Source: Thermoplasmatota archaeon (lineage in GTDB: Archaea > Thermoplasmatota > Thermoplasmata > UBA10834). Taken from it: DNA of 51,533 nt. Under the pieces are notes generated by a model, which saw only the letters and a list, made by a program, of their open reading frames with translations, was not told where the DNA came from and searched no databases. The DNA lies in contig JAJISI010000002.1 in the NCBI GenBank assembly GCA_022848805.1, positions 1 to 51,533 on the forward strand. Reading direction: 5' to 3'. The position numbers and the translations under genes are program-made. Shown here piece by piece: positions 30,527-50,127 of the stretch. Numbering within the stretch: position 1 is the first letter of the stretch; each line of letters starts with the position of its first letter.

Positions 30527-30988
30527 TCAGTCACCGCCTCCCATGGGGGATGGGCCGATCTCCTCTATCGTCTTAGTGAAGCTGACCATCGTCTTCTGGA
30601 ACTTCTCGCCCTCTCCGGCGGATATCCACTCGAGGCGCAGTCTGTCCGGATCGAACCCGAACTGCTGGATCAGCATCCTCAGCAACGCGATTCTCCTGCG
30701 CGTTCTGTAGTTGCCGCCTATGTAGTGGCAATCTGCCGGGTGGCAGCCTGCGACTAGGACGCCATCTACTCCCTTCTGGAACGCTCTCAGGACGAACTCA
30801 GGGTCCACTCTGGCCGAGCACATGACCCGTATCACTCTGAAGTGCGGCGGCATCTGTAGCCTGCTGACGCCTGCGAGGTCCGCGCCTGCGTACGAGCACC
30901 AGTTGCAGCAGAAGACGATTATCTTCGGTTCGAAGTCGTCGCCCTCGGCCTTCTCCTGGCTCTGGGCGTTCGGCGTTGCGCTGCTCAT
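30527..30988 (-). CDS. mvhD: MvhD (FlpD-family [2Fe-2S] electron-transfer subunit)
   Basis: [64 protein letters not shown]. Confidence 0.9.
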   Translation of the reverse strand: MSSATPNAQSQEKAEGDDFEPKIIVFCCNWCSYAGADLAGVSRLQMPPHFRVIRVMCSARVDPEFVLRAFQKGVDGVLVAGCHPADCHYIGGNYRTRRRIALLRMLIQQFGFDPDRLRLEWISAGEGEKFQKTMVSFTKTIEEIGPSPMGGGD

Positions 30989-33900: not shown

Positions 33901-34026
33901 GCTCGGCTGCTTCTCGACCAGGTACACCTTGAATCCTGAGTCGGCCAGGTCCAGCGCCGACTGCAGGCCTGAGATGCCCCCTCCGACGACCATGACCGCT
34001 CCGGTCTTGTCACTAGCTGCCATCAC
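30985..34026 (-). CDS. Double-length HdrA-family flavoprotein (1013 aa; two thioredoxin-reductase-like FAD modules in tandem)
   Basis: Half A (res 1-~435): [20 protein letters not shown], inserted ferredoxin (CTGCGSCAQKCP, CIGCGICAEEC), [15 protein letters not shown]. Half B (res ~445-1013): [16 protein letters not shown] Cys domain, [24 protein letters not shown]-terminal 2x[4Fe-4S] (CDGCGLCVPTC, CKGCGACIGACP). Confidence 0.9.
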   Translation of the reverse strand: MMAASDKTGAVMVVGGGISGLQSALDLADSGFKVYLVEKQPSIGGAMAQLDKTFPTNDCAMCIMAPKLVATGRHHNIELITNADIVKVDGQEGNFTVTGKQRALRVDASKCTGCGSCAQKCPIETTDEYNENTKVRKAIFVKYPQAVPLVYSIDQDKCIGCGICAEECKADAVDYDQKEKDFEIKVGSIIVSPGFDEFDPRLKAEYGYGVYQNVVSSIELERILSATGPHFGTVLRPSDGDIPEKIAFIQCVGSRDEKVGNEYCSGVCCMYSIKEAIIAKEHGGNIKPKIFFMDMRTFGKEFEEYYNRAKDEYGIEFVRSRVASVFEDPETKNLIVSYVEKGEPKEEEFGLVVLAVGLRPPEDAEALSKVMNFSLNDDGFCETGAFTPVSTSRPGVFVSGAFSSPKDIPMTVAEASGAAAKAASEISSARNTLVTKKEYPAETDVSEQEPRIGVFVCHCGINIGGVVNVPSVAEYAKSLPNVVYTEENLYTCSQDTQEKIKQMVKEHNLNRVVVASCTPRTHEPLFQNTIKEAGLNPYLFEMANIRDQCSWIHMHEPTAATKKSKDLVRMAVAKSRLLESLENLTIDVNQQALVVGGGAVGMVTALELAKQGVKVHLVEKEKELGGNLLKLHYLQSGDDPMEYVQSLAKEVTSDPNITTYIGKTIKDIDGYVGNFKTTLESGEEIEHGTVTLAVGGQEYKPDGEYLYGKNPGVMTLLEFKAKLKRGEAKGDSYVFIQCVGSREDGHPNCSRVCCAGTMTAAIKIKEKDPDAKVFVLYRDIRTYGFREKYYKEAAEKGVTFIRFDDDAKPVVEDKGGKIEVRVTDEDTDKEVVLTPDNLVLATGTRPSDGSEELAPMLKVPIMKEGFFLEAHMKLRPVDFATEGVYVAGLAHGPKFLDECIGQGLATVSRAMTVLSKTTLEAEGIVASLDETFCDGCGLCVPTCEYKALEIVPNEKEEGKKLVDVNVGLCKGCGACIGACPSGALTQKGFSDEQIVAMIDAALEETADKQEVKQ
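32381..32504 (-). repeat. Near-identical nucleotide tract shared with 42590-42713 (paralogous double-HdrA genes)
   Basis: Hand alignment at a constant offset of 10209 nt gives 115 of 124 positions identical, including perfect runs of 29, 22 and 40 nt. Confidence 0.8.
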
Positions 34027-34850
34027 TGCTCACCCCCGATCTCGATGGTCTTGTAGAGCGGTGTGAACCCCTCCGGATGCTCCATCGCGATCATGCTGTT
34101 CTGTCTGAGTAGGACGATGTGCCTGAGGACCCTGTCCGTGGGCACCTCCATGACCATGCCCAGCTGTTTCACCGACATGGGTCTTATCCGTGCCAGCTCG
34201 AGTATAAGTGCCCTCTCGAACTCCTCCTCCGTGGCGACATCTATGATGCCGGTGAGTTTCTCAGGATCGACCGTGTCACCGTACGCATTCCCCTTGCTCA
34301 GGAGGTTGAACTCCTTCCCGACCAGGGCCTTCAGTCTGAATGTTTCGGAGGCGTCGTCAGCGGCTGCGACCTTCGCCTTCACCATATCATCCGTATGTAC
34401 CTTGCTCGGCCCCAGCTTCTGGATCTCTTCGGTGAATTCCGTCACGACCTTGGAGAACTTCTCTCCCTCGGACGCCGAGACCCATTCGAGCCTCAGCCGG
34501 CCCTCCTCGATCCCCGCTTCTCTGAGCAGCCTCTTCATCAGATTCACGCGCTTCTCCGTGTGGTAATTGCCCGTCATGTAGTGACAGTCGTTCAGGTGGC
34601 ATCCTCCAACGAGGATGCCGTCGGCACCGGCCTCGAGGACGTCGAGTACGATGTGCGGGCTCACCCTCGTGGAGCACATCACCCTGACGAGGCGGATGTT
34701 CGTCGGGTACTGGAACCTGCTGACGCCGCATAGATCGGCGCCTGCGTACGAGCACCAGTTGCACAGGAAGCCGACGATCTTCGGCTCCCATTCCTTGTCG
34801 GCCTCGGCCTCCTTCTTGCCGTGATGAGCGGTGTGATGCTTCTCCGTCAT
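34023..34850 (-). CDS. MvhD domain fused to the unassigned winged-helix-like domain
   Basis: N-terminal [61 protein letters not shown]. The C-terminal ~120 aa is homologous to ORF 30141-30524. The ATG at 34850 follows GGAGGAGGTG. The ORF-track start at 34889 would overlap the upstream gene. Confidence 0.85.
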   Translation of the reverse strand: MTEKHHTAHHGKKEAEADKEWEPKIVGFLCNWCSYAGADLCGVSRFQYPTNIRLVRVMCSTRVSPHIVLDVLEAGADGILVGGCHLNDCHYMTGNYHTEKRVNLMKRLLREAGIEEGRLRLEWVSASEGEKFSKVVTEFTEEIQKLGPSKVHTDDMVKAKVAAADDASETFRLKALVGKEFNLLSKGNAYGDTVDPEKLTGIIDVATEEEFERALILELARIRPMSVKQLGMVMEVPTDRVLRHIVLLRQNSMIAMEHPEGFTPLYKTIEIGGEQ

Positions 34851-34854
34851 GTCC

Positions 34855-36732
34855 TCACACCTCCTCCAAGGCCGCTTTGGCCTCCGCAAGCAGCTGCTGA
34901 TCCGTGTAGTGTGTCATGGTGATGGCATTCTCTGGGCAGGTGGCGCCGCAGCAACCACAGCCCTTGCACGCTGCGGCAATCACCTCGGTGACGCCCTCCT
35001 CGTTCTTCCTCAGGGCGCTGTACGGGCACGCTTCGACGCATGTCCCGCAGCCGCTGCATTTCGCCTCGTCGATTCTTGAAGTGAGCGCCTCGGCCTGGAC
35101 GAACCCGTTCGCAAGAGGTATCACTGCCCTCGAAGCAGCAGCAGCAGCTTGAGAGACGGCCTCCGTGATGTCGGCCGGTCCTCTGCAAGCCCCGCAGACG
35201 TACACTCCATCGGTCGCGAAGTCCACCGGTCTCAGTTTGACATGCGCCTCTTGGAAGAAGCCGTCTTGTCCGAGCGGGACCTTGAGCAGCTGCGATAGCG
35301 TGGCAGCGTCTGGCTGGGCCACGAGCGGAGTCGAGAGTATGACCAAGTCAACGGGCATCGTCCTCTCCATCTTCAGCGTCTCGTGGAAGTATCCGACTTC
35401 GAGCTTCCCGTCCTTGACGGATACCTTCGGAAGGTTGTCCGGCAGGTATCTGATGAACTTGACTCTCTTCTCCCTGGCTTTGTTGAACTCGAGCTCGTGT
35501 TCGACGCCGTACGCCATGACGTCCCTGTTGAACACCGTGACCTCGACACCACTGGACGGAGCAGCTGCCTCCTCACCGCCCTCATCCTCGTCACGCCGGC
35601 CTCTGCCCCGCCTTCTGCGCCTTCTTTCAGACCCCTCTTCCTCAGCCTTCTTCTCGGCGGTGGGTTCTTCCACGACCTCTCCCGTCTCTGCTGCCTTCTC
35701 CTCGGTCACGCCGAGCATGTTATCGCGGTTCTCGGCAATGTTCATCGCGCTCTTGATCGCGACGTTGCAGCAGATTCTGGAGCAGTACGAGACCGTCTGT
35801 CCTCTCGCACCAACGCACTGTATGAAAGCGACGCTTTTCAGCTTGGGCAGCTCCTTCTTGTTGCAGAGTTCCTCGAACTCTGTGGATGTTATGACGTTCG
35901 GGTGTTCCTTGTATCCGAACAGCCCCTCAGGTACCAGCGGCACCGCACCCGTGGCCACGATGATGGTGCCCACCTTGACTTCCTTCGCCTCAGCCCCATC
36001 CCCTCCTATGGAGACATCATAGTTGCCTATGAACCCCTCCACCGATGCGACGTGCGAGTTGAGGTGCTGGGTGATGTTCTTGTGTGCGTTCACCTTGTCG
36101 ATGAGAGGCTTGATCGTCTCGTTGGCGCTCTTGGTGGTCATCATGAGGCCGTGCAGGTTTTTCACGAACCCTCCGAGCTCCTGGTCCTTCTCGACGAGGT
36201 GCACCGGGAATTTCATGTTGGCGAGCGACAGCGCTGCCGTCATCCCGGACACGCCGCCTCCGACGACGAGCGCGGTGGGCGTGACATCGACCTTCGTCTC
36301 CTCCTGGGGTTCGAGGAACCGGGCTCTCGCAATACCCATCCTGACCAGGTCCTTCGCCTTCTGGGTCGCCTTCTCCTTCTCCTTCATGTGGACCCACGAG
36401 CAGTGCTCACGGATGTTGACAAAAGTGAACATGTACTTGTTCACGCCAGCAGCCTCGCATGTCCGCTGGAAGAGAGGTGCGTGTGTCCTGGGCGTGCAGC
36501 TCGACACGACGACTCTGTCGAGGTTGTGCTCCTTGATGCTGTCCTTGATGTTGTTGAGGCCGTCCTCGGCACATGTGTAGAGGTTGTCCGTCGCGTAGGC
36601 AACGTCCGGGAGGGTTGACGCATACTCGGTCACGGCCTTCACATCGACAAAGCCGCCTATGTTGGATCCACAGTGGCAGATGAATACTCCAATCCGTGGC
36701 TTCTCCTTCTCGGTGCTTGTGTTCTCGGGCAT
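34855..36732 (-). CDS. Short HdrA-family flavoprotein (half-B type: Cys domain + FAD module + C-terminal ferredoxin, no inserted ferredoxin) with a charged low-complexity insert
   Basis: PRIGVFICHCGSNIGG, VVGGGVSG, FIQCVGARG..CSRICC, CSGCGTCVEACP, CKGCGCCGATCP. It lacks DKTFPTxDC and the inserted CxxCxxCxxxC pair. The insert is EEKAAETGEVVEEPTAEKKAEEEGSERRRRRRGRGRRDEDEGGEE. Confidence 0.88.
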   Translation of the reverse strand: MPENTSTEKEKPRIGVFICHCGSNIGGFVDVKAVTEYASTLPDVAYATDNLYTCAEDGLNNIKDSIKEHNLDRVVVSSCTPRTHAPLFQRTCEAAGVNKYMFTFVNIREHCSWVHMKEKEKATQKAKDLVRMGIARARFLEPQEETKVDVTPTALVVGGGVSGMTAALSLANMKFPVHLVEKDQELGGFVKNLHGLMMTTKSANETIKPLIDKVNAHKNITQHLNSHVASVEGFIGNYDVSIGGDGAEAKEVKVGTIIVATGAVPLVPEGLFGYKEHPNVITSTEFEELCNKKELPKLKSVAFIQCVGARGQTVSYCSRICCNVAIKSAMNIAENRDNMLGVTEEKAAETGEVVEEPTAEKKAEEEGSERRRRRRGRGRRDEDEGGEEAAAPSSGVEVTVFNRDVMAYGVEHELEFNKAREKRVKFIRYLPDNLPKVSVKDGKLEVGYFHETLKMERTMPVDLVILSTPLVAQPDAATLSQLLKVPLGQDGFFQEAHVKLRPVDFATDGVYVCGACRGPADITEAVSQAAAAASRAVIPLANGFVQAEALTSRIDEAKCSGCGTCVEACPYSALRKNEEGVTEVIAAACKGCGCCGATCPENAITMTHYTDQQLLAEAKAALEEV

Positions 36733-36738: not shown

Positions 36739-39444
36739 TCACTCCCCTCCTGAATTGGCGAGGATCTCCGCTGCCTTGGCAGCCGCGCTCGATCCCTGGG
36801 CAACGGATTCCGGGATGTCGGCCGGTCCTGCGCAATATCCCGCGAGGTAGATTCCGGGCAGGCCACTCTTGCCGAAGCCCAGGATGCTATCGGGAGACTC
36901 GAAGAAGCCGAATTCCGTGAGCTTCAGCCCGAGCTTCTTCGCCAGTTCGACAGTGTCCTCCCTGGGGACGAGCGTCGTCGCGAGCACGACCGCGTCGAAC
37001 TCCTCTGATTGCTGCTTCCCCCCCACGTCGAAGACGACCACTGGATTGTTGGTCTCCGCGTTCTCCTGTACGGTTGCATCCGAGTTGATGTAGCTGACTC
37101 CGTAATCGCTCTTAGCCCTTTCAACGTACTCGTTGAACCCTTTCGCGCAGGCCCTCATGTCCTTGTAGAATATCGTGGAGTTGATGTCTTCGTAGTGTTC
37201 CCTGGCGAGCATAGCCTCTTTCGTGGCATGCATGCAGCACACTGAACAGCAATAGGGATGTCCCACCTGCGGGTTTCTCGATCCGACGCACTGGATGAAC
37301 GCCAGTTTCTTCGGATGCTCCCCATCGGATCGCCTCACGATGTGTCCTCCAGTGGGTCCTGAGGCGTTGATCATACGTTCATATTCCATCGCCGTGTAGA
37401 CGTTTGGGTACTTCTTGTAGCCGTACTCTGAGGCAGATGTCGGGTCCCACATATCGAAGCCAGTGGCGACTATGACCGCCGCCGGATTCAGCGTTACGAC
37501 CTGATCCTTCATGTTGTAGTCGATGGCGTCGGGGCCGCACGCAGTGGCGCACGCCTCGCACTGGGAGCACGGTCCGCAGTTCACGCATCGAGCCGCCTCC
37601 TTGAGCGCCTCCTCCTTGGTGAACACCTTCTCGACCTCCTCGAAAGAGGTCTTGCGCTTATCATCCGGAATGTGTTGCCTGAGGACACGCTCGCTCTTCG
37701 AGATATCTCCATCCATTCTCGCCTTGATGTCTTCGAGCGTGATCACATGCTCATTCTTCTCCTCTGGTTCCGGCTCGATGCTCTCACCGTTCAACGACTT
37801 CTCGATGTATCGAGCGGCTTTATTGCCCGCCGCGAACGCCTCGACAGCCGACGCGGGTCCTGAAACGGCATCTCCGCCTGCGAAGACGCCTGGGATGTTG
37901 GTGCTTAGGTTGCCGGGGTTGACCTCCAGGGTCTTCCACTTCGTGACCGCAAGGTCCTTCGAGCCAAGAGCGTCCAGGTCCGGCGCCTGGCTCACTGCTG
38001 GGATGACCGTGTCGACTTCGACGGTGAATTCCGACCCATCGACAGGCACTGGACGCGGACGGCCTGACTGGTCCGGCTCGCCGAGTTTCATCCTTATGCA
38101 CTCGATGGCCGTAATCTTGCCGTCCTTGCCCTGGATCTTGACCGGTGATGCCAAGAACTCGAACTTGACTCCTTCCTCTTCCGCTCCTTTGATCTCAGCT
38201 GCGATCGCGGGCATCTCGTCCTTCGTCCGGCGGTATATCACAGTCACATCGGAGCCCATGCGCAAGGCCGTTCTCGCGGCGTCCATCGCGGCGTTTCCCC
38301 CGCCTATGACTGCCACCTTCTTGCCGATCTTGACCGTCTCCTTGTCTGCGACCCTGTGAAGGAAGTCCACGCCATGGACAACCCCTTCCAGGTCCTCGCC
38401 CGGGACGCCCAGCTTGAGGCTCTTATGAGCCCCTATGGCCAGGAAGACGGCATCGTACTCTTTCTTCAGGTCCTCGAGCGCCAGATCCTTGCCGACGGTC
38501 TTGCCGTACTCGATCTCGATCCCGTGTGCCAACAGATGGTCCACCTCGGCGGTCAGCACATCCTTGGGAAGACGGTAGTCGGGGATGCCCCACCAGAGCA
38601 TCCCGCCGGGTTTCGATGTGGCCTCGAACATCTTAACCTTGAATCCTTTGAGCGCCAGACGGTAGGCTGCTGCCAGGCCGGCCGGGCCAGCTCCCACAAC
38701 CGCAACCTTCTCCTTCCGCTCCTCCTCGATTGGGGTCGGCACGTCCTCGCCCTGCTCGCGGACGTAGTCCCCGACGAAAGCCTTCAATCCCGCGATGGCT
38801 ACCGGTTCGTCGACGTCCGTTCTGTTGCAGCCCTCCTCGCAGGGGTGGTGGCATATGCGTCCACACACGGAGGGGAGCGGGATGGTCCTTCGTATCAGGT
38901 CCACCGCTTCCTTGAACTTCTCGGCTCGTATGAGTGCGACGTATCCCTGCGCGCTCAGGCCAGCCGGGCATTTGTCGGAACACGGCGCCACTCCTGCCCT
39001 GTCGATCGTTGCAGCTCTTGGCACTGATTGAAGGAACGGCACGTAGATCGCCGGCCTCTCCCTCATGCCCATATCGAATTCGTTCGGAAGGCTTACCGGG
39101 CACACCTTGAAACAGTCGCCACAGCCATTGCACTTCTCCTCGTCGACGAACCTGGCCTTCTTGAGCACATCAACCTTGAAATCACCGGCTTTCCCAGAGA
39201 TGTCCTTCACCTCTGAGTATGTCATCACATTGATACTGGGATGCGCGTAGCAGTCGGCCATCTTCGGCGCCAGGATGCAGATCGAGCAATCGTTCGTCGG
39301 GAAAGTCTTGTCCAACTGTGCCATTCTTCCGCCTATGCTGGGCAGTTTCTCGACAAGATCGACCTCGATCCCCCTCTCGGCTAGGTCCAAAGCAGCCTGT
39401 ATTCCGGCAATTCCGCCTCCGATTACCATTACGGATTTCGTCAA
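36739..39444 (-). CDS. HdrA-family flavoprotein (half-A type) with a nested GltD/NfnB-like NAD(P)H:FAD oxidoreductase module
   Basis: TTG start after GGGGGT. HdrA parts: [32 protein letters not shown] ... [15 protein letters not shown] ... GIYLAGYCAGPADIP. Inserted part (res ~150-620): CPAGLSAQGYVALIRAEKFKEAV..PSVCGRICHHPCEEGC, VAVVGAGPAGLAAA, VAVIGGGNAAMDAA, GVFAGGDA. Confidence 0.88.
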   Translation of the reverse strand: MTKSVMVIGGGIAGIQAALDLAERGIEVDLVEKLPSIGGRMAQLDKTFPTNDCSICILAPKMADCYAHPSINVMTYSEVKDISGKAGDFKVDVLKKARFVDEEKCNGCGDCFKVCPVSLPNEFDMGMRERPAIYVPFLQSVPRAATIDRAGVAPCSDKCPAGLSAQGYVALIRAEKFKEAVDLIRRTIPLPSVCGRICHHPCEEGCNRTDVDEPVAIAGLKAFVGDYVREQGEDVPTPIEEERKEKVAVVGAGPAGLAAAYRLALKGFKVKMFEATSKPGGMLWWGIPDYRLPKDVLTAEVDHLLAHGIEIEYGKTVGKDLALEDLKKEYDAVFLAIGAHKSLKLGVPGEDLEGVVHGVDFLHRVADKETVKIGKKVAVIGGGNAAMDAARTALRMGSDVTVIYRRTKDEMPAIAAEIKGAEEEGVKFEFLASPVKIQGKDGKITAIECIRMKLGEPDQSGRPRPVPVDGSEFTVEVDTVIPAVSQAPDLDALGSKDLAVTKWKTLEVNPGNLSTNIPGVFAGGDAVSGPASAVEAFAAGNKAARYIEKSLNGESIEPEPEEKNEHVITLEDIKARMDGDISKSERVLRQHIPDDKRKTSFEEVEKVFTKEEALKEAARCVNCGPCSQCEACATACGPDAIDYNMKDQVVTLNPAAVIVATGFDMWDPTSASEYGYKKYPNVYTAMEYERMINASGPTGGHIVRRSDGEHPKKLAFIQCVGSRNPQVGHPYCCSVCCMHATKEAMLAREHYEDINSTIFYKDMRACAKGFNEYVERAKSDYGVSYINSDATVQENAETNNPVVVFDVGGKQQSEEFDAVVLATTLVPREDTVELAKKLGLKLTEFGFFESPDSILGFGKSGLPGIYLAGYCAGPADIPESVAQGSSAAAKAAEILANSGGE

Positions 39445-39604: not shown

Positions 39605-41206
39605 TCATTCCAACGCCTCCGCAATCGCAACACTCAGGTCCTTGATCTTAATGTCCACCTGCTCCTTCGGGACTCCCTCGAGTTTGTTGTCTCGTGTGCA
39701 AGCCAGATGGATCAGGCATTTGTAGCAGCCCGTGACCAAACAATCCGCCCCCGTCTTCTTCGCTTCCTTCAGCCTCTCCACCTGTATCTTTCTCGCGGTC
39801 TCGTCGCAGGTCGTCCACGCGCTCACGCCGCAGCAGAGCGCCTTGTCCCTGGTGTTCTCCATCTCGATTATCTCCGTACCCTCTGAGGCTTCGAGTGCGG
39901 CCCTCGGCGGGTCGTATATGTCGAGGTGCCGGCCAAGCCTGCATGAGTCCTGGAAGGTCAGCTTCCTGGCGCTTGGCTTGAGCTTCAACTTCCCCTCCTT
40001 CACCAGGTCGTCCACGAGCTCTGAGACATGCGTCAGCTCGAACTCGAAATCTCCCATGAAGTCCTGGTAGTCCATGTCGAAGGTCCTCATGCACTCGGGG
40101 CACGAGAACACAACCTTCTTCGCGCCAGAGGCCTTGATCAGGTCGACATTCTTCTTCATCAGCTTCTGGAGGCCCGCCTCGTCCCCCGTCCAGTTGAGGT
40201 CGTGCCCGCAGCAGACCTCGTCGTTGCTCACCACCGGGACAATTCCTGCCTTGTTCATTATCTTCACGACCGCCTGGGGTATACCTGACAGGTTGAGTTC
40301 CCTGTCGTTGAACAGCGCGTCGAAGTATGAGACGCAGCCCGTGAAGTAGAACACCTCGCCCTTCTCTGCGACCTTCAGCTCCTGTGTCAGCCACCCGAGC
40401 CTGTCCTGTTTGAAGTCGCCGTATGCTTGGACCCGCATGAGCCCCTGTATGATCCCACCCTGACTGCACGTCGGTGTGCTGTCCATCTTGACGGCCTCGG
40501 CCCGAAGACCCCTGATGAACCCAGAGTAGTCGACCTCGTACGGACACATGGAGTTGCACTGCTCGCATGTGATGCAGGTCCATATGTCCCCGCCCGTCGT
40601 GATCGCCTCCGTCTGCCCCTCCGTCGCCTTGAGGACTATCGTTCTCGGAGCGAAGTCCGGGTCATGCTTCGCGACAGGACACACGGTCGTGCACTTGCCG
40701 CATTCGACGCAGTCGAAGGCGCCGGTGTCCTCGATGAGTTGATCGACCTTCCGTTTCAAGCTGGCCGGATCGATGCTACCAGCTTTGGGCTGCTTCGGGA
40801 TGGGGTTGGGTCCGAGCTTCCTTATCTGCTCGGTAAACTCCTTCATCGTTGCGGCGAACTTCTGGCCTTCGGACGCGGATATCCACTCGAGGCGCATCCT
40901 GTCCCTGCCTATTCCGACGATGTCGAGCAGCTCCTGGGTCGTCTTCATCCGCTTCTCCGCTTCGACGTTGCCCGATATGTAGTGGCAGTCACCGATATGG
41001 CAGCCTGCGACCAGGACGCCGTCGGCTCCCAGCTCGAGCGCTTTGAGTATGAAGTACGGTTCCACCCGGCCGGAGCACATGACGCGTATGATGCGCGCGT
41101 TGGGCGGGTACTGCATCCTGCTGACGCCCGCGAGGTCAGCACCTGCGTACGAGCACCAGTTGCAGCAGAAGGCGACGATGTTCGGCTCGAACTCGTCCCC
41201 GCTCAT
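39605..41206 (-). CDS. MvhD-HdrC-HdrB triple-domain fusion (soluble HdrD-like CCG reductase with N-terminal MvhD)
   Basis: Res 1-~135 MvhD ([48 protein letters not shown]). Then 2x[4Fe-4S] ([24 protein letters not shown]). Then two CCG domains ([17 protein letters not shown] and [17 protein letters not shown]). Confidence 0.88.
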
Positions 41207-44200
41207 GCCTTCGCCTCCCGTTCCTCGTCGTCATCTGCAAGCGCCGCCTCTATCATCGTGATTATCTGGTCGCTCCTGAAATGCTTGGACCGGATGGCCC
41301 TGGAACAACACTCGACCACACACGAACCGCAGCCTTTGCACAGCGCCTCGTTCACCTTCGACTTGAACACTCCGGGGGAGACCTCCTCGAGCCTCGGGGC
41401 GCCGTATTCGCAGAGGTCCACGCATCTCCCACAGCCGATGCATTTTTCCTCGTCGACCACGCTGACGACGCCCTCGCCCTCTATGAACGGCTTGGAGAGG
41501 ACCGTGTTGACCCTCGCGGCCGCGGCCAGCGCCTGCGAGATGCTCTCGTCGATCAGCCGCGGTGAGTGGGCTAGGCCGCAGAGGAATATGCCATCGGTCG
41601 CGAAGTCGACCGGCCTGAGCTTCATGTGCGCCTCGAGGAAGAACCCCTCCTCGTTCTGCGGTACCTTCAATTTCTGGGCTATGTCCTTGTTGTCGGGGTT
41701 AGGATGGACTGCGGCGTTCAGCACGACATAGTCCGGCCTGATCGTGATGGTCTCCTCTATGAACTTCTCGTCGATCTCGACGATTATGCCATCGCCGTCC
41801 GCTCTCACCTTGGGGGGCGATTCAGGGTCGTACCTTAGGAATCTCACCCCCTGACGGGCGGCCTCGTTGTAGTTCTCTTCTGCGAAGCCGAACGTGCGTA
41901 TGTCCCTGAACAGGATGTACACGCTCGTCTCGGGGTGCTCCTCTCGTATCTTGAGCGCGTTGGCCATCGCCGTGGAGCAGCATATCCTCGAGCAGTTCGG
42001 GTGCTCTTCGTTCCTCGAACCGACGCATTGAATTATTGCGACGGCCTTCGCGTCAAGCTCGCCCTTCGCCAGCATATCTCCCAGGTCGGTCTGTTTGATG
42101 ACCTTCGGGTGCTGGCCGCAGAGGTATTCCGTCGGTTCGTACTCCACCGCACCGGAGGCGACGACCACCGCTCCGTGTTTGATCTCTTCGCCGCCTTTCA
42201 GGGTGGTCTCGAAGTTGCCTATGTACCCTTTGACCTCCTCGACGGTCTCTCCGAGGTGTATCGTGACGTTCGTGTTGTCCTGCAAGTCCTTCTTGAGGTT
42301 TGCAAGGGTTTCCTGAGGGTTCACGCCTGCGAGCGTGTGGTGGATCCTCCTCATGTGCCCTCCCAACTCCTTCTCCTTTTCGACTATGTGTACCTCGTAT
42401 CCCGCCTTGGCTATCTCCAGCGCCGCGGTCATACCGCTCAACCCTCCGCCTATCACCAGTGCGGCCGGGGTGACCGGTATCTTCGGCTGAGGGAGCGGTT
42501 CGAGCATGGATGCCTTCGCGACTGCCATGCGCACGAGGTCCTTCGACTTCTCGGTGGCGGCCTCCGGTTCCAACCTGTGGACCCACGAGCATTGGTCCCG
42601 TATGTTCGCCATCTCGAAGAGATACTTGTTGAGCCCCGCCTCTCTGACGGTGTTCTGGAACAGCGGTTCGTGTGTCCTGGGCGTGCAGCTCGCGACGACC
42701 ACCCTGTTCAGGTCGTGCTCGTCGATCATCTCCTTGATCTTCTTCTGCGTGTCCTGAGAACAAGTGTACAGGTTTTCCTCCGCGTATACGACACCAGGGA
42801 GCTTGGAGGCGTACTCCATCACCCCAGGCACGTCTACGACGGATCCTATGTTGATCCCGCAATGGCAGACGAACACCCCTATCCTGGGTTCCTTGTCCGT
42901 CACGTCCTTCTCCTCGGGATACTCCTTCTTCGTGACCAGCTTGCCCCTCTCGTCTGAGAGCAAGGCGGCCGCCTTCCCTGCAGCTCCGCTTGCCTGAGCG
43001 ACAGAATCGGGTATGTCCTTCGGGCCGGAGAACGCCCCGCAGACGTAGATTCCTGGCACCGAAGTATCGACAGGCGCGAGCTCGTCGGTTTCGCAGAAGC
43101 CGAACTTGTTCATATTCATGCCAAGCGATTTCGCGAGCGCTTTCGAGGATTCCGGTGGCGTCGCCCCGGATGCCAGTACGACCATATCGAAAGTCTCATC
43201 TTCGATGTCAGCGCCATCTATGAAGCCGAGTACGAGGTCGCTCGTCCCGGGGTTCTCCTGGACCTTCGCGATCCTGTTGTTCCTGAACATCCTGACGCCG
43301 TACTCATCCTCCGCCCGGTGCAGATACTCCTCGAACTCCTTCCCGAAAGCTCTGGTATCCATGAAGAATATGGTCGTCTTGAGCCCCGGAACATGCTCCT
43401 GGGCGATGACCGCTTGCTTCAAGGCTGCCATACAGCAGTACGAGGAGCAGTAGGTGTTCGGCGTCTGTGCGTCCCTGGAGCCGACGCATTGTATGAACGC
43501 GATATTTTTCGGCACGTCCCCGTCCGAAGGCCTGATCACATGCCCCTCTGTAGGGCCTGACGCGCTCAACATCCTCTCGAACTCGATGTTGCTGAGCACG
43601 TTGGGGAACGTGCCATGACCGTACATCACCTTCTTTGAAGAGTTGTATACGTCGTAGCCTGGCGCGAGGATTATGGCGCCGACGTCTATGGTCTCTTCGA
43701 TATCTGGGTCCATGTCGTATTTGATGGCCTCAGCCTCGCAGAACTTCTCGCAGATGCCGCATCCGATGCACAGCCCTCTGTCGATGGTGTATATCAACGG
43801 GACTGCCTGCGGGAACGGTACATATATCGCCTTCGCGGGCGCCAGCTCCCTGTCGAATGCGCTGGACCACTCAATGGGACAGTGCTCCGCACACACGCCG
43901 CAGCCGGTGCACTTCTCCTCGACGATGTACCGTGAGTACTTGGCGAGTGTTACCTTGAAGTTCCCGGCCTGCCCCTCGACCTTCTTGAGAACGGAATAGG
44001 TGAGCATTGTGACATTCTCATGCCTGCCGGTCGCGACGAGCTTCGGGGACAGTATGCACATCGAGCAGTCGTTCGTCGGGAATGTCTTATCGAGCTGCGA
44101 CATAGTCCCTCCGATGCTCGGCGTCGTCTCCAGAAGATACACCTTGAACCCTGAATCCGCGAGATCCAGTGCGGCCTGCATCCCCGCCGGTCCGCCGCCG

Positions 44201-44238
44201 ATGACCAGGACGGCACCTACCCGCTCGTTCTTTGTCAT
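41203..44238 (-). CDS. Double-length HdrA-family flavoprotein (1011 aa), paralogue of 30985-34026
   Basis: Same half-A/half-B order: [58 protein letters not shown]. Then [61 protein letters not shown]. Confidence 0.9.
42590..42713 (-). repeat. Near-identical nucleotide tract shared with 32381-32504
   Basis: See the 32381-32504 entry. The tract encodes the conserved [26 protein letters not shown] segment of half B. Confidence 0.8.
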
Positions 44239-44240: not shown

Positions 44241-44684
44241 CTACGCACCCTCCTGAGCGATCGGTCCTAGCTGCTCGAGGTCAGACACCATTTCCCTGAT
44301 GACTTTGGCGAACTTCTGCCCTTCAGAACCAGCGATCCACTCGATTCTGAAGCGTTCCGGCTCTATGCCCGTCTCCTCTAAGAACTCCTCCAGGAAGTCG
44401 CCTCTCGTCGCGGTCTTCTCGTTGCCGTTGATGTAATGGCAGTCTGAGGGATGGCACCCAGCGACTATCACCCCGTCCGCTCCGAGCGTGAATGCCTTGA
44501 GGACGAACGCAGGGTCCACCCTCCCCGAACACATGACTCTCACGATCCTCACGTTCGGCGGATACTGCATCCTCGTGGTGCCCGCGAGGTCCGCGCCTGC
44601 GTACGAGCACCAGTTGCAGCAGAACGCGACTATTTTGGGCTCGTAGCTCGGCTGGTCCTGCTTGGCTTCTGACTGCTCTGCCAC
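44241..44684 (-). CDS. mvhD: MvhD (FlpD-family) subunit
   Basis: [61 protein letters not shown]. Confidence 0.9.
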   Translation of the reverse strand: MAEQSEAKQDQPSYEPKIVAFCCNWCSYAGADLAGTTRMQYPPNVRIVRVMCSGRVDPAFVLKAFTLGADGVIVAGCHPSDCHYINGNEKTATRGDFLEEFLEETGIEPERFRIEWIAGSEGQKFAKVIREMVSDLEQLGPIAQEGA

Positions 44685-44686: not shown

Positions 44687-45604
44687 TCAGACCCCCCTGA
44701 GCTTCCTGAGGAACGAGTGTGCCGACACGTGGTGCGTGTCGAACCCGAGCGATATCGGGTCGATGCCCATCGCCAGCGCCTGGAACTGAGCCACGTGCAT
44801 CACAGGGATGCCGTCCTTGGTGAAAGCCTTCTGGGCGTTGTCGAACTGGAGCAGACAGAAAGGGCAGCCAGTGACGATGCAGTCCGCCTCAGCAGCGACG
44901 ATGTTCCTGCATTTGTCTTCCGTGAGGGAATTGGCCAGCTCCACCACGTGAGACCTGACGCCTCCACCAGCGCCGCAGCAGTCCAGCTTGTCTTCGTAGT
45001 CGACGCTCGTCGCACCGCACGCCTCGATTATCTGGTCGATCTTGACGGGGTCGTTGGGGTCGTCGATGGTCTGGTTCTCGGTCGGTCTAAGATAATGGCA
45101 CCCATAGTGTACCGCCGCTTTGATGTTCTTGAGCGGCCGCGTGGTACGTTTCTGGACCTCTTCGAGACTGATGTCATTCGTCATGACGTCCACATAGTGC
45201 CTGACCTTGACCGGCTCCATTATCCGTCTCCGGCCCTCGGTCTTCCGAGGGGTACCCGTGTATTTCTTTCCTATCTGCGCCAGCATCCGGTTGACCTTTC
45301 CCCTCCTCTTGGAGTCCTCGAGGTACTCCGTCGCCTTGAGAAGTGAGGTGAGACAGCCGTTGCAGACGGTTAGTATCTCCCTGCGCTCCTTCTGCCCCAG
45401 GACGAGGTTGCGGGAGGCCAGCAACAACCATGTGTCTTTGTCCGATGAGTAGAATATTCCTGGCACCGGGCAGCACGAGAACTCCTTGATATCCGCGACA
45501 TCGAGGTCGTACCCTTCCTTGCCACAGACCCACCTGACCGCGTACTCGACGCCCGGGTATCTGTTCGGTATTATGCACCCGAAGAAGTAGGCGTAGCTGG
45601 TCAT
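44687..45604 (-). CDS. hdrB: Heterodisulfide reductase subunit B (two CCG domains)
   Basis: YFFGCIIPNRYPG..SCCPVPG..CNGC and HYGCHYLRP..CCGAGGG..GCPFC. Confidence 0.92.
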   Translation of the reverse strand: MTSYAYFFGCIIPNRYPGVEYAVRWVCGKEGYDLDVADIKEFSCCPVPGIFYSSDKDTWLLLASRNLVLGQKERREILTVCNGCLTSLLKATEYLEDSKRRGKVNRMLAQIGKKYTGTPRKTEGRRRIMEPVKVRHYVDVMTNDISLEEVQKRTTRPLKNIKAAVHYGCHYLRPTENQTIDDPNDPVKIDQIIEACGATSVDYEDKLDCCGAGGGVRSHVVELANSLTEDKCRNIVAAEADCIVTGCPFCLLQFDNAQKAFTKDGIPVMHVAQFQALAMGIDPISLGFDTHHVSAHSFLRKLRGV

Positions 45605-46179
45605 GCCTTCACCTCCTCCTCGATGCCGATGAGCTTGTCGTATCCGACCGCGTGGACGAGCACGTTGATTTCCTTTATCACCTTCGCGTACTCCGCCCCT
45701 CGCGAGGGAACGTCCTCGAGATCTAGCTCCTTCCGGATCTTCTCGACCTCCAGGTCAGGTTTCACGCTCTGGCCGTACTTCACCAGGTTGGCAGCCGCCA
45801 CCTTTATGAACGGCGGTATGACCCCTTCCCTGATAGCGATGTGCCTAAGCGCGATCATGACCTCCGCAGGGTTGATATCGGCTGGACAGTGCTCGTAGCA
45901 TCTGTAGCATGTTGCGCACACCCATTGTGTTCCGAGTGTGAGCGTCTTGAGGCCGAACTGGCAGTACTTGATGATGCTCCTGGTCTTGTAGTCTATCTTG
46001 AGGCTGATCGGGCACACACCTGTACAGTTTCCGCACTGCAGGCATGTCATGACGTCCTTGCCGCCGTACTTGACGATCTCCTTCGCGAAACCAGGCTCCA
46101 ACTGTGACTCGTCTATGACCTTGTCCTCGACCAGCTTCTCGCGCAGGCCGCTCAGGAAGACCTTCTCCACCTCCCCCAT
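45601..46179 (-). CDS. hdrC: Heterodisulfide reductase subunit C
   Basis: CLQCGNCTGVCP and CATCYRCYEHCP ferredoxin motifs in a 192-aa protein. ATGA overlap with hdrB. Confidence 0.92.
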   Translation of the reverse strand: MGEVEKVFLSGLREKLVEDKVIDESQLEPGFAKEIVKYGGKDVMTCLQCGNCTGVCPISLKIDYKTRSIIKYCQFGLKTLTLGTQWVCATCYRCYEHCPADINPAEVMIALRHIAIREGVIPPFIKVAAANLVKYGQSVKPDLEVEKIRKELDLEDVPSRGAEYAKVIKEINVLVHAVGYDKLIGIEEEVKA

Positions 46180-48281
46180 TACGACACCTCCTCCTCGGCA
46201 GCGGGTTTCTTCGCCATTTCCTTCGTCTTGCCTCCGCCGCTCTCCACGTCCTCGAGCGCGGAAACGATCTCAGAGGTGATCTGGTCGTCTGTGAATTGGT
46301 TCGCTACGATCGCTTTCTGCGGGCACGCGGCCACGCATGTTCCACAGCCATGGCACAGCGCCTCGATGACCCTGGCTTTCGTGCCCTTCTCTCCTTCGTA
46401 CAGCTCGGGAGCACGGTACGGGCACATCTCGACGCATAGCCCGCATGCCACGCAGAGATCCTCATCGACCATAGCAGTCAACGGCTCGATTTTGACCTTC
46501 TTACCGGACATGACGCAAGCGGCAGAAGCTGCCGCGGCCTTCGCCTGGGCGATGGAATCGGGGATATCCTTGGGGCCCTGCGCACACCCTGCGAGATATA
46601 TGCCGTCCATGGCCGTGTCGACCGGCCGTAGCTTCGGGTGTGCCTCCATGAAGAATCCGTCCGGGCTCAGTGACAGCGCGAGCGTCTTGCCGATACGCTT
46701 ACTTCCTTCCGACGGAAGGAGTCCCGTCGAGAGCACCACGAGGTCGAACTCCCTCTCGGTTATCTTGTTTAGAAGGGTCTCCTCTGCCCTGATCGTGATT
46801 GACTTGGTCTCGGGGTCCTCGCTCAACTTCGCAGGCCGGCCTCTTATGAACTCTACGCTGTACTCCTCTCTCACGCGATGGTAGAGCTCCTCGAAACCCT
46901 TACCGAACGCCCGGATGTCGTTGTAGTAAACCGATATCTCGGTCTCAGACGCGTGCTCCTTGATGATCTGCGCGTTCTTGATTGCATACATGCAGCACAC
47001 GCGCGAGCAGTAGTTGTTGCCAATCTTCTTGTTCCTTGAGCCGACGCACTGTATGAATGCTATCCTCTCAGGAGCCTCGCCGTCTGATGGACGGATGAGG
47101 TGTCCTCCAGTCGGCCCAGCGGCGTTGATGAGCCGCTCCAATTCCAGGCCGGTTATGACGTTCGGGTACTCCCAGTACTTGTACACTCCCCGCTTCTTCG
47201 GCAGGTAGGTGTCGTAGCCTGTCGCGACGATTATCGTTCCTACCTTGAGGTCGACGAGCTCGTCCTCCATCTCGTGGTCTATCGCATTGTTTTGGCAGGC
47301 CTTGAGACAGGCCTTGCACTTGCCGTTCTTGAAATGTATGCAGTTGTCCTTGTCGATCGTGTATATGAGGGGAACCGCCTGGGGGAACGGCACGTATATG
47401 GCCTTCCTCTTGCCGTATCCAAGGTCGAACTTGTTGTCGACCTTCACCGGGCATACATCCGCGCAGACCCCGCAACCAACGCACTTGTCCTCGATGACGA
47501 ACCTTGATTTCCTTCTGACCTTGATGTCGAAGTTGCCGATGAATCCCTGAACGTCCTCCACCTCGGAGTACGACATCAGGGTGATGTTCGGGTGTCGTGC
47601 GACATCCACCATCTTAGGCGCTAGTATGCATATCGCACAGTCGCCCGTCGGGAAGGTCTTGTCTAGCTGTGCCATCCGGCCACCGATGCTAGGTTCGGAC
47701 TCGACGAGGTAGACTTTGAATCCCATCTGGGCCAGGTCGAGGGCTGCCTGTATTCCTGCCACTCCTCCGCCTATGACCAGTGAGGTCTGCTCCACAGGCA
47801 CCTCACGGGCCTCGAGGGGCACGAGTCTGGAAGCCTTGGCGACTCCCATCCTAACAAGGGCGATTGCCTTCCTCGTGGCCTCTTCCTTCTGCTGGGAGTG
47901 TACCCAGGAACACTGCTCCCGCAGGTTGACCATCTGTAGAAGGTAAGGGTTCAGTCCCGCCTGTTTGATGCAGTTCCTGAAGGTTGGCTCATGCATCCTA
48001 GGCGAGCACGCGGCGACCACCACGCGATTGACGTGGTTCTCCTTGATCGCCTTGATGATCTCATCCTGTCCAAGGTCGGAGCAGGTGTACTTGTTCCCCT
48101 TCGAGACGACGACTCCTGGTAATCTCTCCGCGGATTCCCGGACCTTTTCGACGTCAACCGTACCAGCGATGTTGCTGCCGCAGTGACACACGAAAACGCC
48201 GACCCTAGGCTCTTCGTCCCCGCTCTCCCGTTCGGGCTTCTTCTGAGCGGAGTTCTCTTCGAGTGACTCGGGTGAACTCAT
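46179..48281 (-). CDS. hdrA: Heterodisulfide reductase subunit A, canonical four-domain form
   Basis: [16 protein letters not shown] Cys domain, VIGGGVAG, DKTFPTGDCAIC, inserted ferredoxin (CVGCGVCADVCP ...CKACLKAC), [16 protein letters not shown]-terminal CVACGLCVEMCP and CHGCGTCVAACP. The ATG at 48281 follows AGAGGGA. The upstream ATG at 48353 lacks an SD. TAATG overlap with hdrC. Confidence 0.92.
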   Translation of the reverse strand: MSSPESLEENSAQKKPERESGDEEPRVGVFVCHCGSNIAGTVDVEKVRESAERLPGVVVSKGNKYTCSDLGQDEIIKAIKENHVNRVVVAACSPRMHEPTFRNCIKQAGLNPYLLQMVNLREQCSWVHSQQKEEATRKAIALVRMGVAKASRLVPLEAREVPVEQTSLVIGGGVAGIQAALDLAQMGFKVYLVESEPSIGGRMAQLDKTFPTGDCAICILAPKMVDVARHPNITLMSYSEVEDVQGFIGNFDIKVRRKSRFVIEDKCVGCGVCADVCPVKVDNKFDLGYGKRKAIYVPFPQAVPLIYTIDKDNCIHFKNGKCKACLKACQNNAIDHEMEDELVDLKVGTIIVATGYDTYLPKKRGVYKYWEYPNVITGLELERLINAAGPTGGHLIRPSDGEAPERIAFIQCVGSRNKKIGNNYCSRVCCMYAIKNAQIIKEHASETEISVYYNDIRAFGKGFEELYHRVREEYSVEFIRGRPAKLSEDPETKSITIRAEETLLNKITEREFDLVVLSTGLLPSEGSKRIGKTLALSLSPDGFFMEAHPKLRPVDTAMDGIYLAGCAQGPKDIPDSIAQAKAAAASAACVMSGKKVKIEPLTAMVDEDLCVACGLCVEMCPYRAPELYEGEKGTKARVIEALCHGCGTCVAACPQKAIVANQFTDDQITSEIVSALEDVESGGGKTKEMAKKPAAEEEVS

Positions 48282-48458
48282 GATTTCCCTCTTTGCTCGG
48301 GTAGTCGAATCAAATCCAGGACGAGAGAGACCACGGAAACAAAGCGTCGCCATCTGACGCTTACACTCGACTCTGGCAGTTCTGACGAGGTGTGTGTAAT
48401 AAAGGAGCCCTTAATATAGCTTTCGTTATCCATGTTTCGAAAAACGCAGGGTCCTTAG

Positions 48459-48674: not shown

Positions 48675-49757
48675 TCATTTCCGTCCTCTGGTGTACCGAT
48701 GTGAGATGTAGCAGCTCCCCTCACGCGAGACCATACAGGGACCGACGGGTGTGGATGGAGTGCACTGTCGCCCGAACAGGGGGCATTCCTCGCTCGTCAG
48801 AAGTCCGCGGAGCATCTCACCGCATCTGCACCCCTTCGGTTCCTCGTATTCTGCATCTCTTACTGGCGCAAGAATGTCCTCGAACTTTCTGGACGCGTCG
48901 TGTTCCCCGAGGGTGCTCCGGATCGCAAGGCCGCTCTGCGGTATAACCGGGAATCCTCGCCAACGGACATCCGACGTTGTGAAGGCATCCTCCATTGCCT
49001 TGAGGGCCACGGGGTTTCCTTCTTTCTTCACGACGCGCGAGTACTCGTTCTGGACACTAGCGCTGCCGTCAGCTAGCTGTTTGGCCAGCATGTAGACTCC
49101 CATCATTAGATCCAACGGTTCGAATCCTGCGACGACTTGTGGTATGCCGTGATCTCTTGACAGGAATTCGTATGGCTCCGTCCCGATTATGGTGCTCACG
49201 TGGCCCGGCTGTATCATTCCATGGAGTTTGATCTCACCCAGCGATGCGATTGCTCTGAGCGCCGGTGGCACAACTCTATGTAAGCTCAGCACGGAGAAGT
49301 TGTCAGGGGGATTTGCCAGCAACGCGACCGCGGTGGTCGGTGCGGTTGTCTCGAACCCGATGCCGACGAAGACGACCTCGTCTTCAGAGTCTCTTGCCAT
49401 CTCAACCGCGTCGTCGATTCCGAAGACAATCCTGACATCGCCGCCTTCTGCCTTGATATCGTTCAACGATTGCTCTCGGCCAGGGACTCTCATGAGGTCA
49501 CCGAAGACAGCAACGGTGACTCCCTTGCGTGCAAGCTCCAGCGCTTGTTCGATCTCTTCTGGAGGGGTGACACACACAGGACACCCTGGGCCCTGGCGTA
49601 TGTCGATTCCCGCTTTTCTGAACTCCCCATCCAGACCGAACTTGATCAGCGTGTCCTGGTGGGTGCCGCAAACATGCATCAGCGTGATGTCGAGCCCCAT
49701 CTCCTTGAGCTCACCCATCACCTTCTTCGAGATTTCCTTGTCTCTGTATCTAAACAT
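48675..49757 (-). CDS. hypD: [NiFe] hydrogenase maturation protein HypD
   Basis: MFRYRDKE start, CGTHQDT, GPGCPVCVTP, and a C-terminal Cys cluster (CRCGE..CPLFGRQCTP..GPCMVS..GSC). The ATG at 49757 overlaps the hypA end by 8 nt. The ORF-track start is 49790. Confidence 0.92.
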   Translation of the reverse strand: MFRYRDKEISKKVMGELKEMGLDITLMHVCGTHQDTLIKFGLDGEFRKAGIDIRQGPGCPVCVTPPEEIEQALELARKGVTVAVFGDLMRVPGREQSLNDIKAEGGDVRIVFGIDDAVEMARDSEDEVVFVGIGFETTAPTTAVALLANPPDNFSVLSLHRVVPPALRAIASLGEIKLHGMIQPGHVSTIIGTEPYEFLSRDHGIPQVVAGFEPLDLMMGVYMLAKQLADGSASVQNEYSRVVKKEGNPVALKAMEDAFTTSDVRWRGFPVIPQSGLAIRSTLGEHDASRKFEDILAPVRDAEYEEPKGCRCGEMLRGLLTSEECPLFGRQCTPSTPVGPCMVSREGSCYISHRYTRGRK

Positions 49758-50124
49758 CGGGGACCACCATCCTGATATCTCTGATGACACACTCTCTGCC
49801 GCCTACGATGGTCGCCGCCCCTCCGCATTTCGGACACTCGAGGATGAGGGTCGACCCATGAGCGGCATCCTCTGATGGTGACATCGCCCCTCTGTAGCCG
49901 CACGCACACTCTATCTCCCCGTCCGTCCTACGAAACACGACGGCCGCATCTTCCATCATCGTCCCTTTGGCGAGAACCTCGAAGGAGAATCGCATCTGCT
50001 CCTCCCCGAGCATCGTGAACTCTCCTAGCTCGATCGTGACGCCCTCTATCTTCTTTGCCTCTCTCTTCTCGGCCTCTTCCATGATCGCGTCAACGATTTG
50101 ACTCATGACTGAGAATTCGTGCAT
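49750..50124 (-). CDS. hypA: [NiFe] hydrogenase nickel-insertion protein HypA
   Basis: MHEFSVMSQIV N-terminus (Ni site) and zinc Cys pairs CAC...CPKC. Confidence 0.88.
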   Translation of the reverse strand: MHEFSVMSQIVDAIMEEAEKREAKKIEGVTIELGEFTMLGEEQMRFSFEVLAKGTMMEDAAVVFRRTDGEIECACGYRGAMSPSEDAAHGSTLILECPKCGGAATIVGGRECVIRDIRMVVPDV

Positions 50125-50127
50125 GGC

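Follow-up and report, generated by a model that had tools for sequence, protein, structure and literature searches.

Does the covalent joining of the hydrogenase-to-HdrA adaptor MvhD to a heterodisulfide reductase (Hdr)-type subunit mean that electrons take a different route through an HdrA-based complex? The question is raised by a contig of an uncultured Thermoplasmata archaeon of cold seeps (GenBank assembly GCA_022848805.1, contig JAJISI010000002.1, positions 1 to 51,533; the whole 51,533 nt stretch analysed is called the window below). One of its genes, P0001, encodes an MvhD::HdrD-like fusion protein of 533 aa. Anaerobic energy metabolism relies heavily on electron bifurcation by HdrA-based enzymes, and outside the methanogens the high-potential substrate of most Hdr-like complexes is not established. 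Judged by its sequence, P0001 is real and conserved and belongs to a fused variant of the HdrA/MvhD/HdrD system that is widespread, and the fusion alone is no proof of a new wiring.

The fused gene and its cluster ligands

The open reading frame (ORF) of the initial annotation exists and starts with ATG; it lies on the minus strand, which had not been stated. The start codon overlaps the TGA of a gene for a 1011 aa double HdrA as ATGA at 41203–41206. P0001 is translationally coupled to this double HdrA, as the initial annotation had claimed.

The proposed domain inventory (a full MvhD domain, two ferredoxin motifs and two CCG domains) agreed with the Pfam results and with the cysteine map. Pfam placed FlpD at residues 10–132, a Fer4 dicluster at residues 165–226 and two CCG stretches reaching to residue 501, the second of them at 417–501. 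The N-terminal part is a full-length FlpD family member: the PF02662 match had an E-value of 1.7e-56 and a score of 190 bits (cut-off: 22.3), and it covered profile positions 1–123 of 123. Solved MvhD chains were matched with E-values of 2.8e-55 (9sw2_D) and 4.7e-54 (5odc_D). When the AlphaFold2 (AF2) model of the domain was compared with MvhD chains by Foldseek, the template modelling (TM) scores were 0.85–0.90, with an identity of 57–64%.

The cluster cysteines of P0001 were invariant or at least 90% conserved in an alignment of 61 homologues. In the MvhD domain, the invariant ones were C15, C18, C44, C69 and C74, and the domain thus has the conserved cysteines of a presumed [2Fe-2S] site. 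All eight cysteines of the ferredoxin motifs (C166xxC169xxC172xxxC176P and C211xxC214xxC217xxxC221P) were invariant as well. The HdrC-like domain matched HdrC chains with an E-value of 1.5e-9.

For the CCG domains, the 61 fusion homologues were aligned profile to profile (hhalign) with nine HdrB proteins from the window and related loci. The alignment had a probability of 95.7% over 235 columns, and all ten cysteines fell on HdrB invariants. An incomplete cysteine set, the outcome that had been expected to speak against the annotation, was not found. With two Cx(31-40)CCx(34-36)CxxC motifs and ten aligned cysteines, P0001 belongs to the CCG superfamily (HdrB/HdrD/GlpC/LutA/EtfD). The motifs and the hhalign result also bear out that the window encodes a second complete CCG-type site besides hdrCB. 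From the ligand pattern, P0001 would carry one [2Fe-2S] cluster in its MvhD domain and two cubane [4Fe-4S] clusters in its HdrC-like domain.

The AF2 model of the chain had a predicted local distance difference test (pLDDT) value of 82.9 and a predicted TM score (pTM) of 0.87. At the fusion point it showed coil (132–146) followed by a helix (147–161). No transmembrane helix was predicted, and the maximum of the Kyte–Doolittle hydropathy over 19 residues (KD-19) was 1.34. P0001 is predicted to be soluble.

The initial annotation had described the C-terminal half as HdrC plus HdrB. This had to be revised, as the half is not of the local HdrCB kind. Its ~380 residues do fold like HdrC+HdrB (Foldseek TM 0.62–0.68 to HdrB chains). 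However, the identity of the HdrC-like part to the local HdrC was 30%, and the equivalog scores were far below the cut-offs of HdrB and HdrC in the strict sense (TIGR03288: 24.1 versus 345 bits; TIGR03290: 48 versus 160 bits). With P0001 as the query, phmmer did not reach the HdrB chains of the PDB. The best solved relative was EtfD of M. smegmatis (9ojn), which matched residues 194–504 with an E-value of 1.2e-30 by sequence and was also the top Foldseek match (E-value 1.9e-15). The best NCBIfam matches were TfrB, LdhH and GlpC, all far under their cut-offs. The low identity to the local HdrCB, the equivalog scores and the EtfD match together point to a module of the HdrD/EtfD lineage. The C-terminal half is thus classified as a module of the HdrD type that falls into none of the characterised subfamilies. 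A recent copy of the adjoining hdrC–hdrB genes was considered as its source and rejected, as the identity was merely 28–30% over 81–104 residues.

The DNA of the window recurs in metagenomes from cold seeps and marine sediment. Contigs of three separate cold-seep runs crossed the MvhD/HdrD junction (nt 40714–40810) without insertions or deletions, e.g. contig X3 over 39869–41125 and contigs X1 and X2 over 40688–41119/41176. As the junction is free of such differences in independent contigs, the fused frame is no assembly artefact. Split forms in relatives and a broken copy on a UBA10834 contig (L013) could be cited for an assembly or frameshift error that fused two genes, but the same frame in the three other runs, in all 120 best database matches, which stem from many sources, and in a syntenic closed genome (L001) leaves this explanation practically no chance. 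In L013 (3177–4960), the fusion gene is broken at about residue 328/350, within the first CCG domain; most likely, this break is a frameshift error of that metagenome-assembled genome (MAG). One RNA-labelled cold-seep run contained two identical short contigs inside the P0001 gene, which is too weak for a claim of expression.

Fusion, fission and gene context among relatives

A word-indexed protein search gave 4671 matches, and the architecture was read for the best 120. All of these 120 consisted of FlpD, Fer4 and CCG domains, with a length of 530–558 aa and an identity of 56–92%. They came from MAGs of Thermoplasmata, Methanomassiliicoccales and "Methanobacteriota" and were labelled "hydrogenase iron-sulfur subunit" or "heterodisulfide reductase subunit D". 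When representatives at 50% identity were searched exhaustively, 1181 proteins had an E-value ≤ 1e-30. Among the best 150 clusters, which were classified, 19 were fused, 101 were HdrD-only (370–400 aa) and 23 were MvhD-only. The closest named match in species-representative genomes was the Thermoplasmata MAG UBA10834 (88% identity).

With thousands of database entries, the MvhD::HdrD architecture is neither rare nor surprising to a specialist. The initial annotation had named, as a finding that would count against it, an architecture that is common and assigned to a known non-Hdr function. The architecture is indeed common; it is not assigned to such a function. No literature naming an MvhD–HdrD fusion was found, and in the papers found MvhD fusions are discussed solely as HdrA C-terminal ones.

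For a survey of fusion and fission, ORFs were called in 22 related loci and compared with the window proteins. The fused gene was present in the Thermoplasmata loci L005–L012, L015, L018 and L019. In other Thermoplasmata (L017, L020, L023 and L030) and in bacteria, namely WOR-3 (L021), Chloroflexota (L022) and Bacteroidota (Cytophagia; L014), hdrA was followed by a separate mvhD and then by a separate hdrD-like gene. In Glassbacteria (L024), an HdrL-like protein carries the MvhD domain at its C-terminus instead. In the split orthologues, MvhD ends 7–12 residues past LGPNP and the HdrD-like protein begins 8–12 residues before GAFDC. The stop and start codons of the split pairs usually overlap, meaning that a small frame change suffices for fusion.

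In a maximum-likelihood tree of the HdrD parts (129 rows), P0001 was placed in an all-fused clade of 14 Thermoplasmata rows (Shimodaira–Hasegawa-like approximate likelihood ratio test, SH-aLRT, 96), sister to split Thermoplasmata forms. Over the whole tree, the label "fused" changed at least eight times on well-supported branches. Hence, the two parts were joined, or separated again, more than once. One fused relative with 33% identity (L086) lies on a contig with bacterial genes, including a sigma-70 factor and a RelB/ParE toxin-antitoxin system.

P0001 is the joined form of neighbouring mvhD and hdrD-like genes that follow an hdrA-type gene in many anaerobes. The fusion is a recurrent repackaging and is not confined to this genome. 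Fused genes and split orthologues together are Rosetta-stone evidence that a type II (or GltD-bearing) HdrA, MvhD and an HdrD-like protein form one functional unit, which is present in many uncultured archaea and bacteria.

In the separate mvhD of the Cytophagia MAG (L014:5980–6440), a TGA stands in frame where P0001 has Cys69 (VLVAT*HFEDCHY). This codon probably encodes selenocysteine, which has been reported for MvhD of Desulfobacterium autotrophicum.

In 19 of 20 contexts (the window and 18 others), an HdrA-type gene immediately preceded the fused gene; it was absent only on the 4.8 kb contig L088. The contexts with an upstream HdrA homologue are the window, L001–L012, L015, L018, L019, L085, L086, L087 and L089. 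Three kinds of HdrA occurred: a double one of ~960–1015 aa, a shorter one of ~560–595 aa and a GltD-bearing, HdrL-like one of 1115–1136 aa. In L004 and L008–L012, only a ~590 aa HdrA gene and the fusion gene were found, with no hdrBC nearby. In L086 (1461–9596) and L089 (289–8434), a 2-oxoacid:ferredoxin oxidoreductase operon is followed by the HdrL-like gene (1115–1136 aa) and then by the fused MvhD::HdrD gene; the L089 contig also carries two-component signalling genes.

The whole 20 kb gene string of the window is syntenic in the closed 1.97 Mb genome (L001). Its order is HypF/A/D, HdrA, HdrC, HdrB, MvhD, double HdrA, MvhD::HdrD and HdrL, followed by HdrA, MvhD with a winged helix-turn-helix (wHTH), double HdrA, MvhD, a 127 aa protein, MvhG, MvhA and a protease.

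In many relatives, the fusion gene or the split pair is directly followed by a gene for a small Cys-repeat protein of ~90–150 aa (L002:11639–12082, L003:11648–12100, L005 ~7677–7943, L006, L007, L013:5036–5290, L016 and L017). The protein has two repeats of the form RRYxxxELACKERHCDPCTYPDCQRF..FTT, each with C-x5-C-x2-C-x4-C, and matched no Pfam family. It is a candidate for a partner or substrate of the HdrD-like module. No homologue was found in the window, and the gene is also missing from L001. In both, a 901 aa HdrA with a GltD insert follows the fusion gene after 160 nt (window 36739–39444). In the nearest relatives (L005:8248–9546, L006 and L007; 74–80% identity), the small Cys-repeat gene is found together with a 431–432 aa HdrA half without GltD. 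The GltD insert in the window and L001, set against none in the nearest relatives, indicates that the NAD(P)H module is a recent swap in this clade.

Proposed electron path and competing readings

By sequence and by analogy with known complexes, we consider it somewhat probable that P0001 is the iron–sulfur subunit of a soluble HdrA-based flavoenzyme. MvhD would be the relay on the donor side, the HdrD-like module would be the exit that reduces a disulfide, probably not the heterodisulfide of coenzymes M and B (CoM-S-S-CoB), and HdrA's ferredoxin domain would reduce ferredoxin. P0001 and the upstream double HdrA would assemble into a soluble flavin/iron–sulfur complex akin to HdrA–MvhD–HdrBC and BamE–BamF–BamD. 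A mid-potential donor would deliver the electrons; candidates are H2 via MvhAG, encoded at the end of the gene string, and NAD(P)H via the adjoining GltD-bearing HdrA. The MvhD domain would relay the electrons to the flavin of HdrA. The HdrD-like module would then take the high-potential electrons and reduce a disulfide, and the inserted ferredoxin domain of HdrA would reduce ferredoxin. We infer the cofactors, the complex formation, the direction of electron flow and the substrate, and the steps are to be read accordingly as a proposal.

The UBA10834 order was judged to be non-methanogenic, as it has no mcr, and yet it has kept hdrABCD (bioRxiv 10.1101/2020.03.09.984617). Because this lineage is reported to be non-methanogenic, the substrate of P0001 is probably not CoM-S-S-CoB, a view that rests on relatives and literature. 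A non-CoM/CoB substrate, as suggested in the initial annotation, is plausible.

The initial annotation had further held that the fusion implies a different wiring. The fusion alone does not carry this conclusion, as split mvhD and hdrD-like orthologues occur in the same order after hdrA. MvhD may feed HdrA, as in the classical complex, or the HdrD module directly; both wirings are compatible with the fusion.

Three points weigh against the proposed path. The pTM of 0.87 and a fairly confident linker in the AF2 model hint that MvhD may be docked on the HdrD module, unlike in the classical complexes. A single chain (P0199) with GltD-like, Fer4, FlpD and CCG parts and no HdrA core argues that MvhD can feed the HdrD family directly. 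Moreover, EtfD, the closest solved relative, and BamD serve a protein partner, the electron-transferring flavoprotein (ETF), and not a disulfide.

The first two points lead to a direct connection, in which the [2Fe-2S] cluster of MvhD is in electron-transfer contact with the HdrC-like clusters of the same chain. The HdrD-like site would then sit on the MvhD (mid-potential) port of HdrA and the neighbouring HdrBC on the high-potential port, giving one super-complex with two thiol/disulfide-type sites at different ports. Where HdrBC is absent, the enzyme would not bifurcate and would act as a ferredoxin:disulfide or NAD(P)H:disulfide oxidoreductase; the loci that combine a ~590 aa HdrA with the fusion gene (L004 and L008–L012) would suit this case. 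Fusions usually join electron-transfer neighbours, e.g. in the HdrA–MvhD fusion (type Ia HdrA; PMC12054007). Besides P0199, the GltD + HdrD-family fusions P0134 and P0183 fit a direct connection, and so does the pattern of one MvhD with a variable accessory per HdrA unit. In BamF, the accessory and its partner are in contact at the side of MvhD. The pTM value given above for the chain is a further point in favour. However, all solved HdrA-type complexes carry HdrBC/BamD on the cluster of the thioredoxin reductase (TrxR) domain and not on MvhD, and gene adjacency alone can account for the fusion. We regard the direct connection as possible, with clearly less than an even chance.

A more far-reaching version is doubtful. 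Here, the fusion would mark a wiring unseen in solved Hdr complexes, with a [2Fe-2S] adaptor directly feeding, or fed by, the HdrD-like non-cubane site, a double HdrA with two thiol/disulfide-type sites and a non-CoM/CoB substrate, possibly the small Cys-repeat protein. If true, two sulfur redox couples would be connected with ferredoxin and with H2 or NAD(P)H in non-methanogenic Thermoplasmata.

It is similarly doubtful that the HdrD-like module, instead of reducing a small-molecule disulfide, is an exit that passes single electrons to a protein partner, as in BamD–ETF and EtfD/ETF:menaquinone oxidoreductase (EMO). Such a partner could be a flavoprotein resembling ETF, a small protein rich in cysteine or a complex in the membrane. 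EtfD of M. smegmatis is the best match of the C-terminal half in sequence and fold, H335, W339 and W464 beside the CCG motifs are invariant in the fusion family, and many relatives encode the small Cys-repeat protein directly after the fusion gene. On the other hand, both five-cysteine sets of P0001 are complete and invariant, while the distal cluster is degraded in most BamD homologues. The window contains no etf gene, the small Cys-rich gene is absent from it, and no membrane segment was predicted in P0001.

That P0001 serves a methanogen as a second CoM-S-S-CoB reductase, i.e. an HdrD in the strict sense, is very unlikely, even though several homologues were named "heterodisulfide reductase subunit D" by annotators of the Joint Genome Institute (JGI) and some relatives are labelled Methanomassiliicoccales. 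The order of UBA10834, the closest named relative, is reported without mcr, no HdrE-like membrane partner is encoded in the window, and P0001 lacks a transmembrane segment. The gene pair also occurs in WOR-3, Chloroflexota and Bacteroidota, bacteria without CoM/CoB methanogenesis. In addition, the accession order suggests that mvhD is not beside hdrD in the cultured Methanomassiliicoccales of Borrel et al.

The double HdrA gene and P0001 (41203–44238 plus 39605–41206) offer a compact two-gene target for studies of expression and structure.

The window locus and known systems

The features of P0001 and its neighbours are listed in the table.

Table. Positions of P0001, its parts and neighbouring genes in the 51,533 nt window
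Feature	Position	Strand	Basis
P0001, entire MvhD::HdrD-like fusion gene	39605..41206	-	ORF, Pfam, AF2
MvhD/FlpD domain, aa 10-132, presumed [2Fe-2S] site, Cys 14, 15, 18, 44, 69, 74	40811..41179	-	PF02662, structure matches
Linker and N-terminal helix of HdrC-like part, aa 133-164, fusion point	40715..40810	-	Split orthologues, AF2
HdrC-like ferredoxin domain, aa 165-226, two CxxCxxCxxxCP	40529..40714	-	Fer4_8/Fer4_17 matches
CCG motif 1, C291-x40-C332C333-x35-C369xxC372	40091..40336	-	Aligned on HdrB C10/C44/C45/C81/C84
CCG motif 2, C422-x35-C458C459-x34-C494xxC497	39716..39943	-	Aligned on HdrB C169/C209/C210/C247/C250
Shine-Dalgarno-like GGGAGG, within 3' end of double hdrA	41214..41219	-	7 nt before P0001 ATG, sequence read
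Double (type II) HdrA, 1011 aa, presumed P0001 partner	41203..44238	-	NF040770, two FAD/TrxR-like halves, ATGA overlap
Stand-alone MvhD	44241-44684	-	Profile matches; same gene string as P0001
HdrB	44687-45604	-	TIGR03288, 313 bits versus cut-off 345
HdrC	45601-46179	-	TIGR03290, 120 bits versus cut-off 160

The double HdrA matched NF040770 (HdrA2) with 998 bits in three stretches. HdrC and HdrB are encoded 3.5 kb upstream of P0001, where the initial annotation had placed a canonical HdrBC. The HdrA, HdrC and HdrB of the window (44687–48353, minus strand) scored below the NCBIfam CoB–CoM equivalog cut-offs (958 versus 1100, 120 versus 160 and 313 versus 345 bits, respectively). By these scores, the "canonical" proteins are Hdr-like rather than proven CoM-S-S-CoB reductase subunits.

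The mvhG and mvhA genes are located in the same gene string, 10 kb downstream of P0001. The MvhD domain of P0001 is thus encoded next to hdrA, with the ATGA overlap, and in one string with mvhGA, in keeping with its assignment to MvhD/FlpD. The window has four MvhD copies, and the cysteines of the [2Fe-2S] site are kept in all four. Behind each HdrA unit of the locus, one MvhD is encoded, whose C-terminal accessory varies: it is a winged HTH, HdrD or missing altogether.

The 288 aa MvhD (34023–34889, minus strand) has a C-terminal extension, and its 334 aa homologue in L002 matches HTH_20. A free 127 aa protein encoded between mvhD and mvhG (30141–30524, minus strand) had weak HTH matches. The extension and the 127 aa protein recall BamF from class II benzoyl-CoA reductase (BCRII), whose winged-HTH extension docks the input module. 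The longest ORF of MvhG (29125–30534, minus strand; 469 aa, GTG start) overlaps the 127 aa gene. Homology to VhuG begins at residue 133, and in the syntenic genome mvhG is called directly after the 127 aa gene, which puts the true mvhG start near 30138. Nickel and hydrogenase-maturation genes flank the hdr/mvh string (21783–22190 and 25968–27029, plus strand; 48675–51527, minus strand). They encode a NikR-like regulator, an AIR-synthase-related protein (Pfam AIRS/AIRS_C), HypA, HypD and HypF; the AIR-synthase-related protein is probably HypE.

Among known systems, the H2:heterodisulfide/ferredoxin oxidoreductase HdrABC–MvhAGD of methanogens (5ODC, 8RVU, 7BKB and 9SW2) shares with P0001 the MvhD (~63% identical), the HdrC-like dicluster and the HdrB-like CCG pair. 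The HdrA gene next door and MvhAG in the string are shared as well. In P0001, however, three subunits are one chain, the HdrC/B part is of the HdrD lineage and the HdrA presumed to be its partner is a pseudo-dimer formed by fusion. Its host belongs to a lineage reported to be non-methanogenic, so that the substrate is probably different.

Double (type II) and GltD-inserted (type III, HdrL) HdrA proteins have been described, and hdrA clusters have been noted to include, unexpectedly, an HdrD-like gene now and then (PMC12054007, PMC9012536 and PMC2702500). Chadwick et al. found HdrD in hdrA clusters to be unusual in methanogens (PMC9012536). The HdrA of Methanomassiliicoccales is of the double type and adjoins mvhDGA (PMC4153887).

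HdrD of HdrDE (Methanosarcina) and the soluble HdrD of Methanomassiliicoccales are HdrC–HdrB fusions in which a single chain carries the ferredoxin dicluster and, after it, two CCG domains, and P0001 has the same arrangement. In contrast to HdrD, P0001 has an N-terminal MvhD, has no transmembrane segment and is coupled to HdrA. A gene for HdrE, the membrane cytochrome b partner, was not found in the 51.5 kb window.

In type Ia HdrA, e.g. HdrA2 of Methanosarcina acetivorans (PMC5296606 and PMC12054007), MvhD is also covalently joined to a neighbour in an hdrA–mvhD–hdr(CB/D) order. There, it is found on the C-terminus of HdrA, whereas in P0001 it is on the N-terminus of the HdrD-like subunit.

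EtfD/EMO (9ojn) is the best solved match of P0001 residues 194–504. EtfD is membrane-bound and works with ETF, while P0001, by prediction a soluble protein, contains an MvhD domain and is not flanked by etf genes. The N-terminal membrane domain of EtfD has no counterpart in P0001, given the low hydropathy maximum.

The closest structural parallel is BamE–BamF–BamD of Geobacter metallireducens, the same trio, in which a fused dimer of HdrA is combined with an MvhD-like adaptor and an HdrD-like subunit. In BCRII, BamE is the fused HdrA dimer and BamF is an extended MvhD-like entry adaptor; BamE passes high-potential electrons to the HdrD-like BamD (bioRxiv 10.64898/2026.04.10.717634). The heterodisulfide pocket of BamD is blocked, and its non-cubane clusters hand the high-potential electron to ETF (bioRxiv 10.64898/2026.04.10.717634). 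By this precedent, a type II HdrA can carry an HdrD-like subunit whose task is not the reduction of CoM-S-S-CoB. Genes for the BamBC tungsten enzyme, BamGHI and ETF were not found in the window. In P0001, the adaptor and the HdrD-like part are one polypeptide, and both non-cubane cysteine sets are intact. By analogy, the P0001 module would work like BamDEF, as a related unit and not as a member of BCRII.

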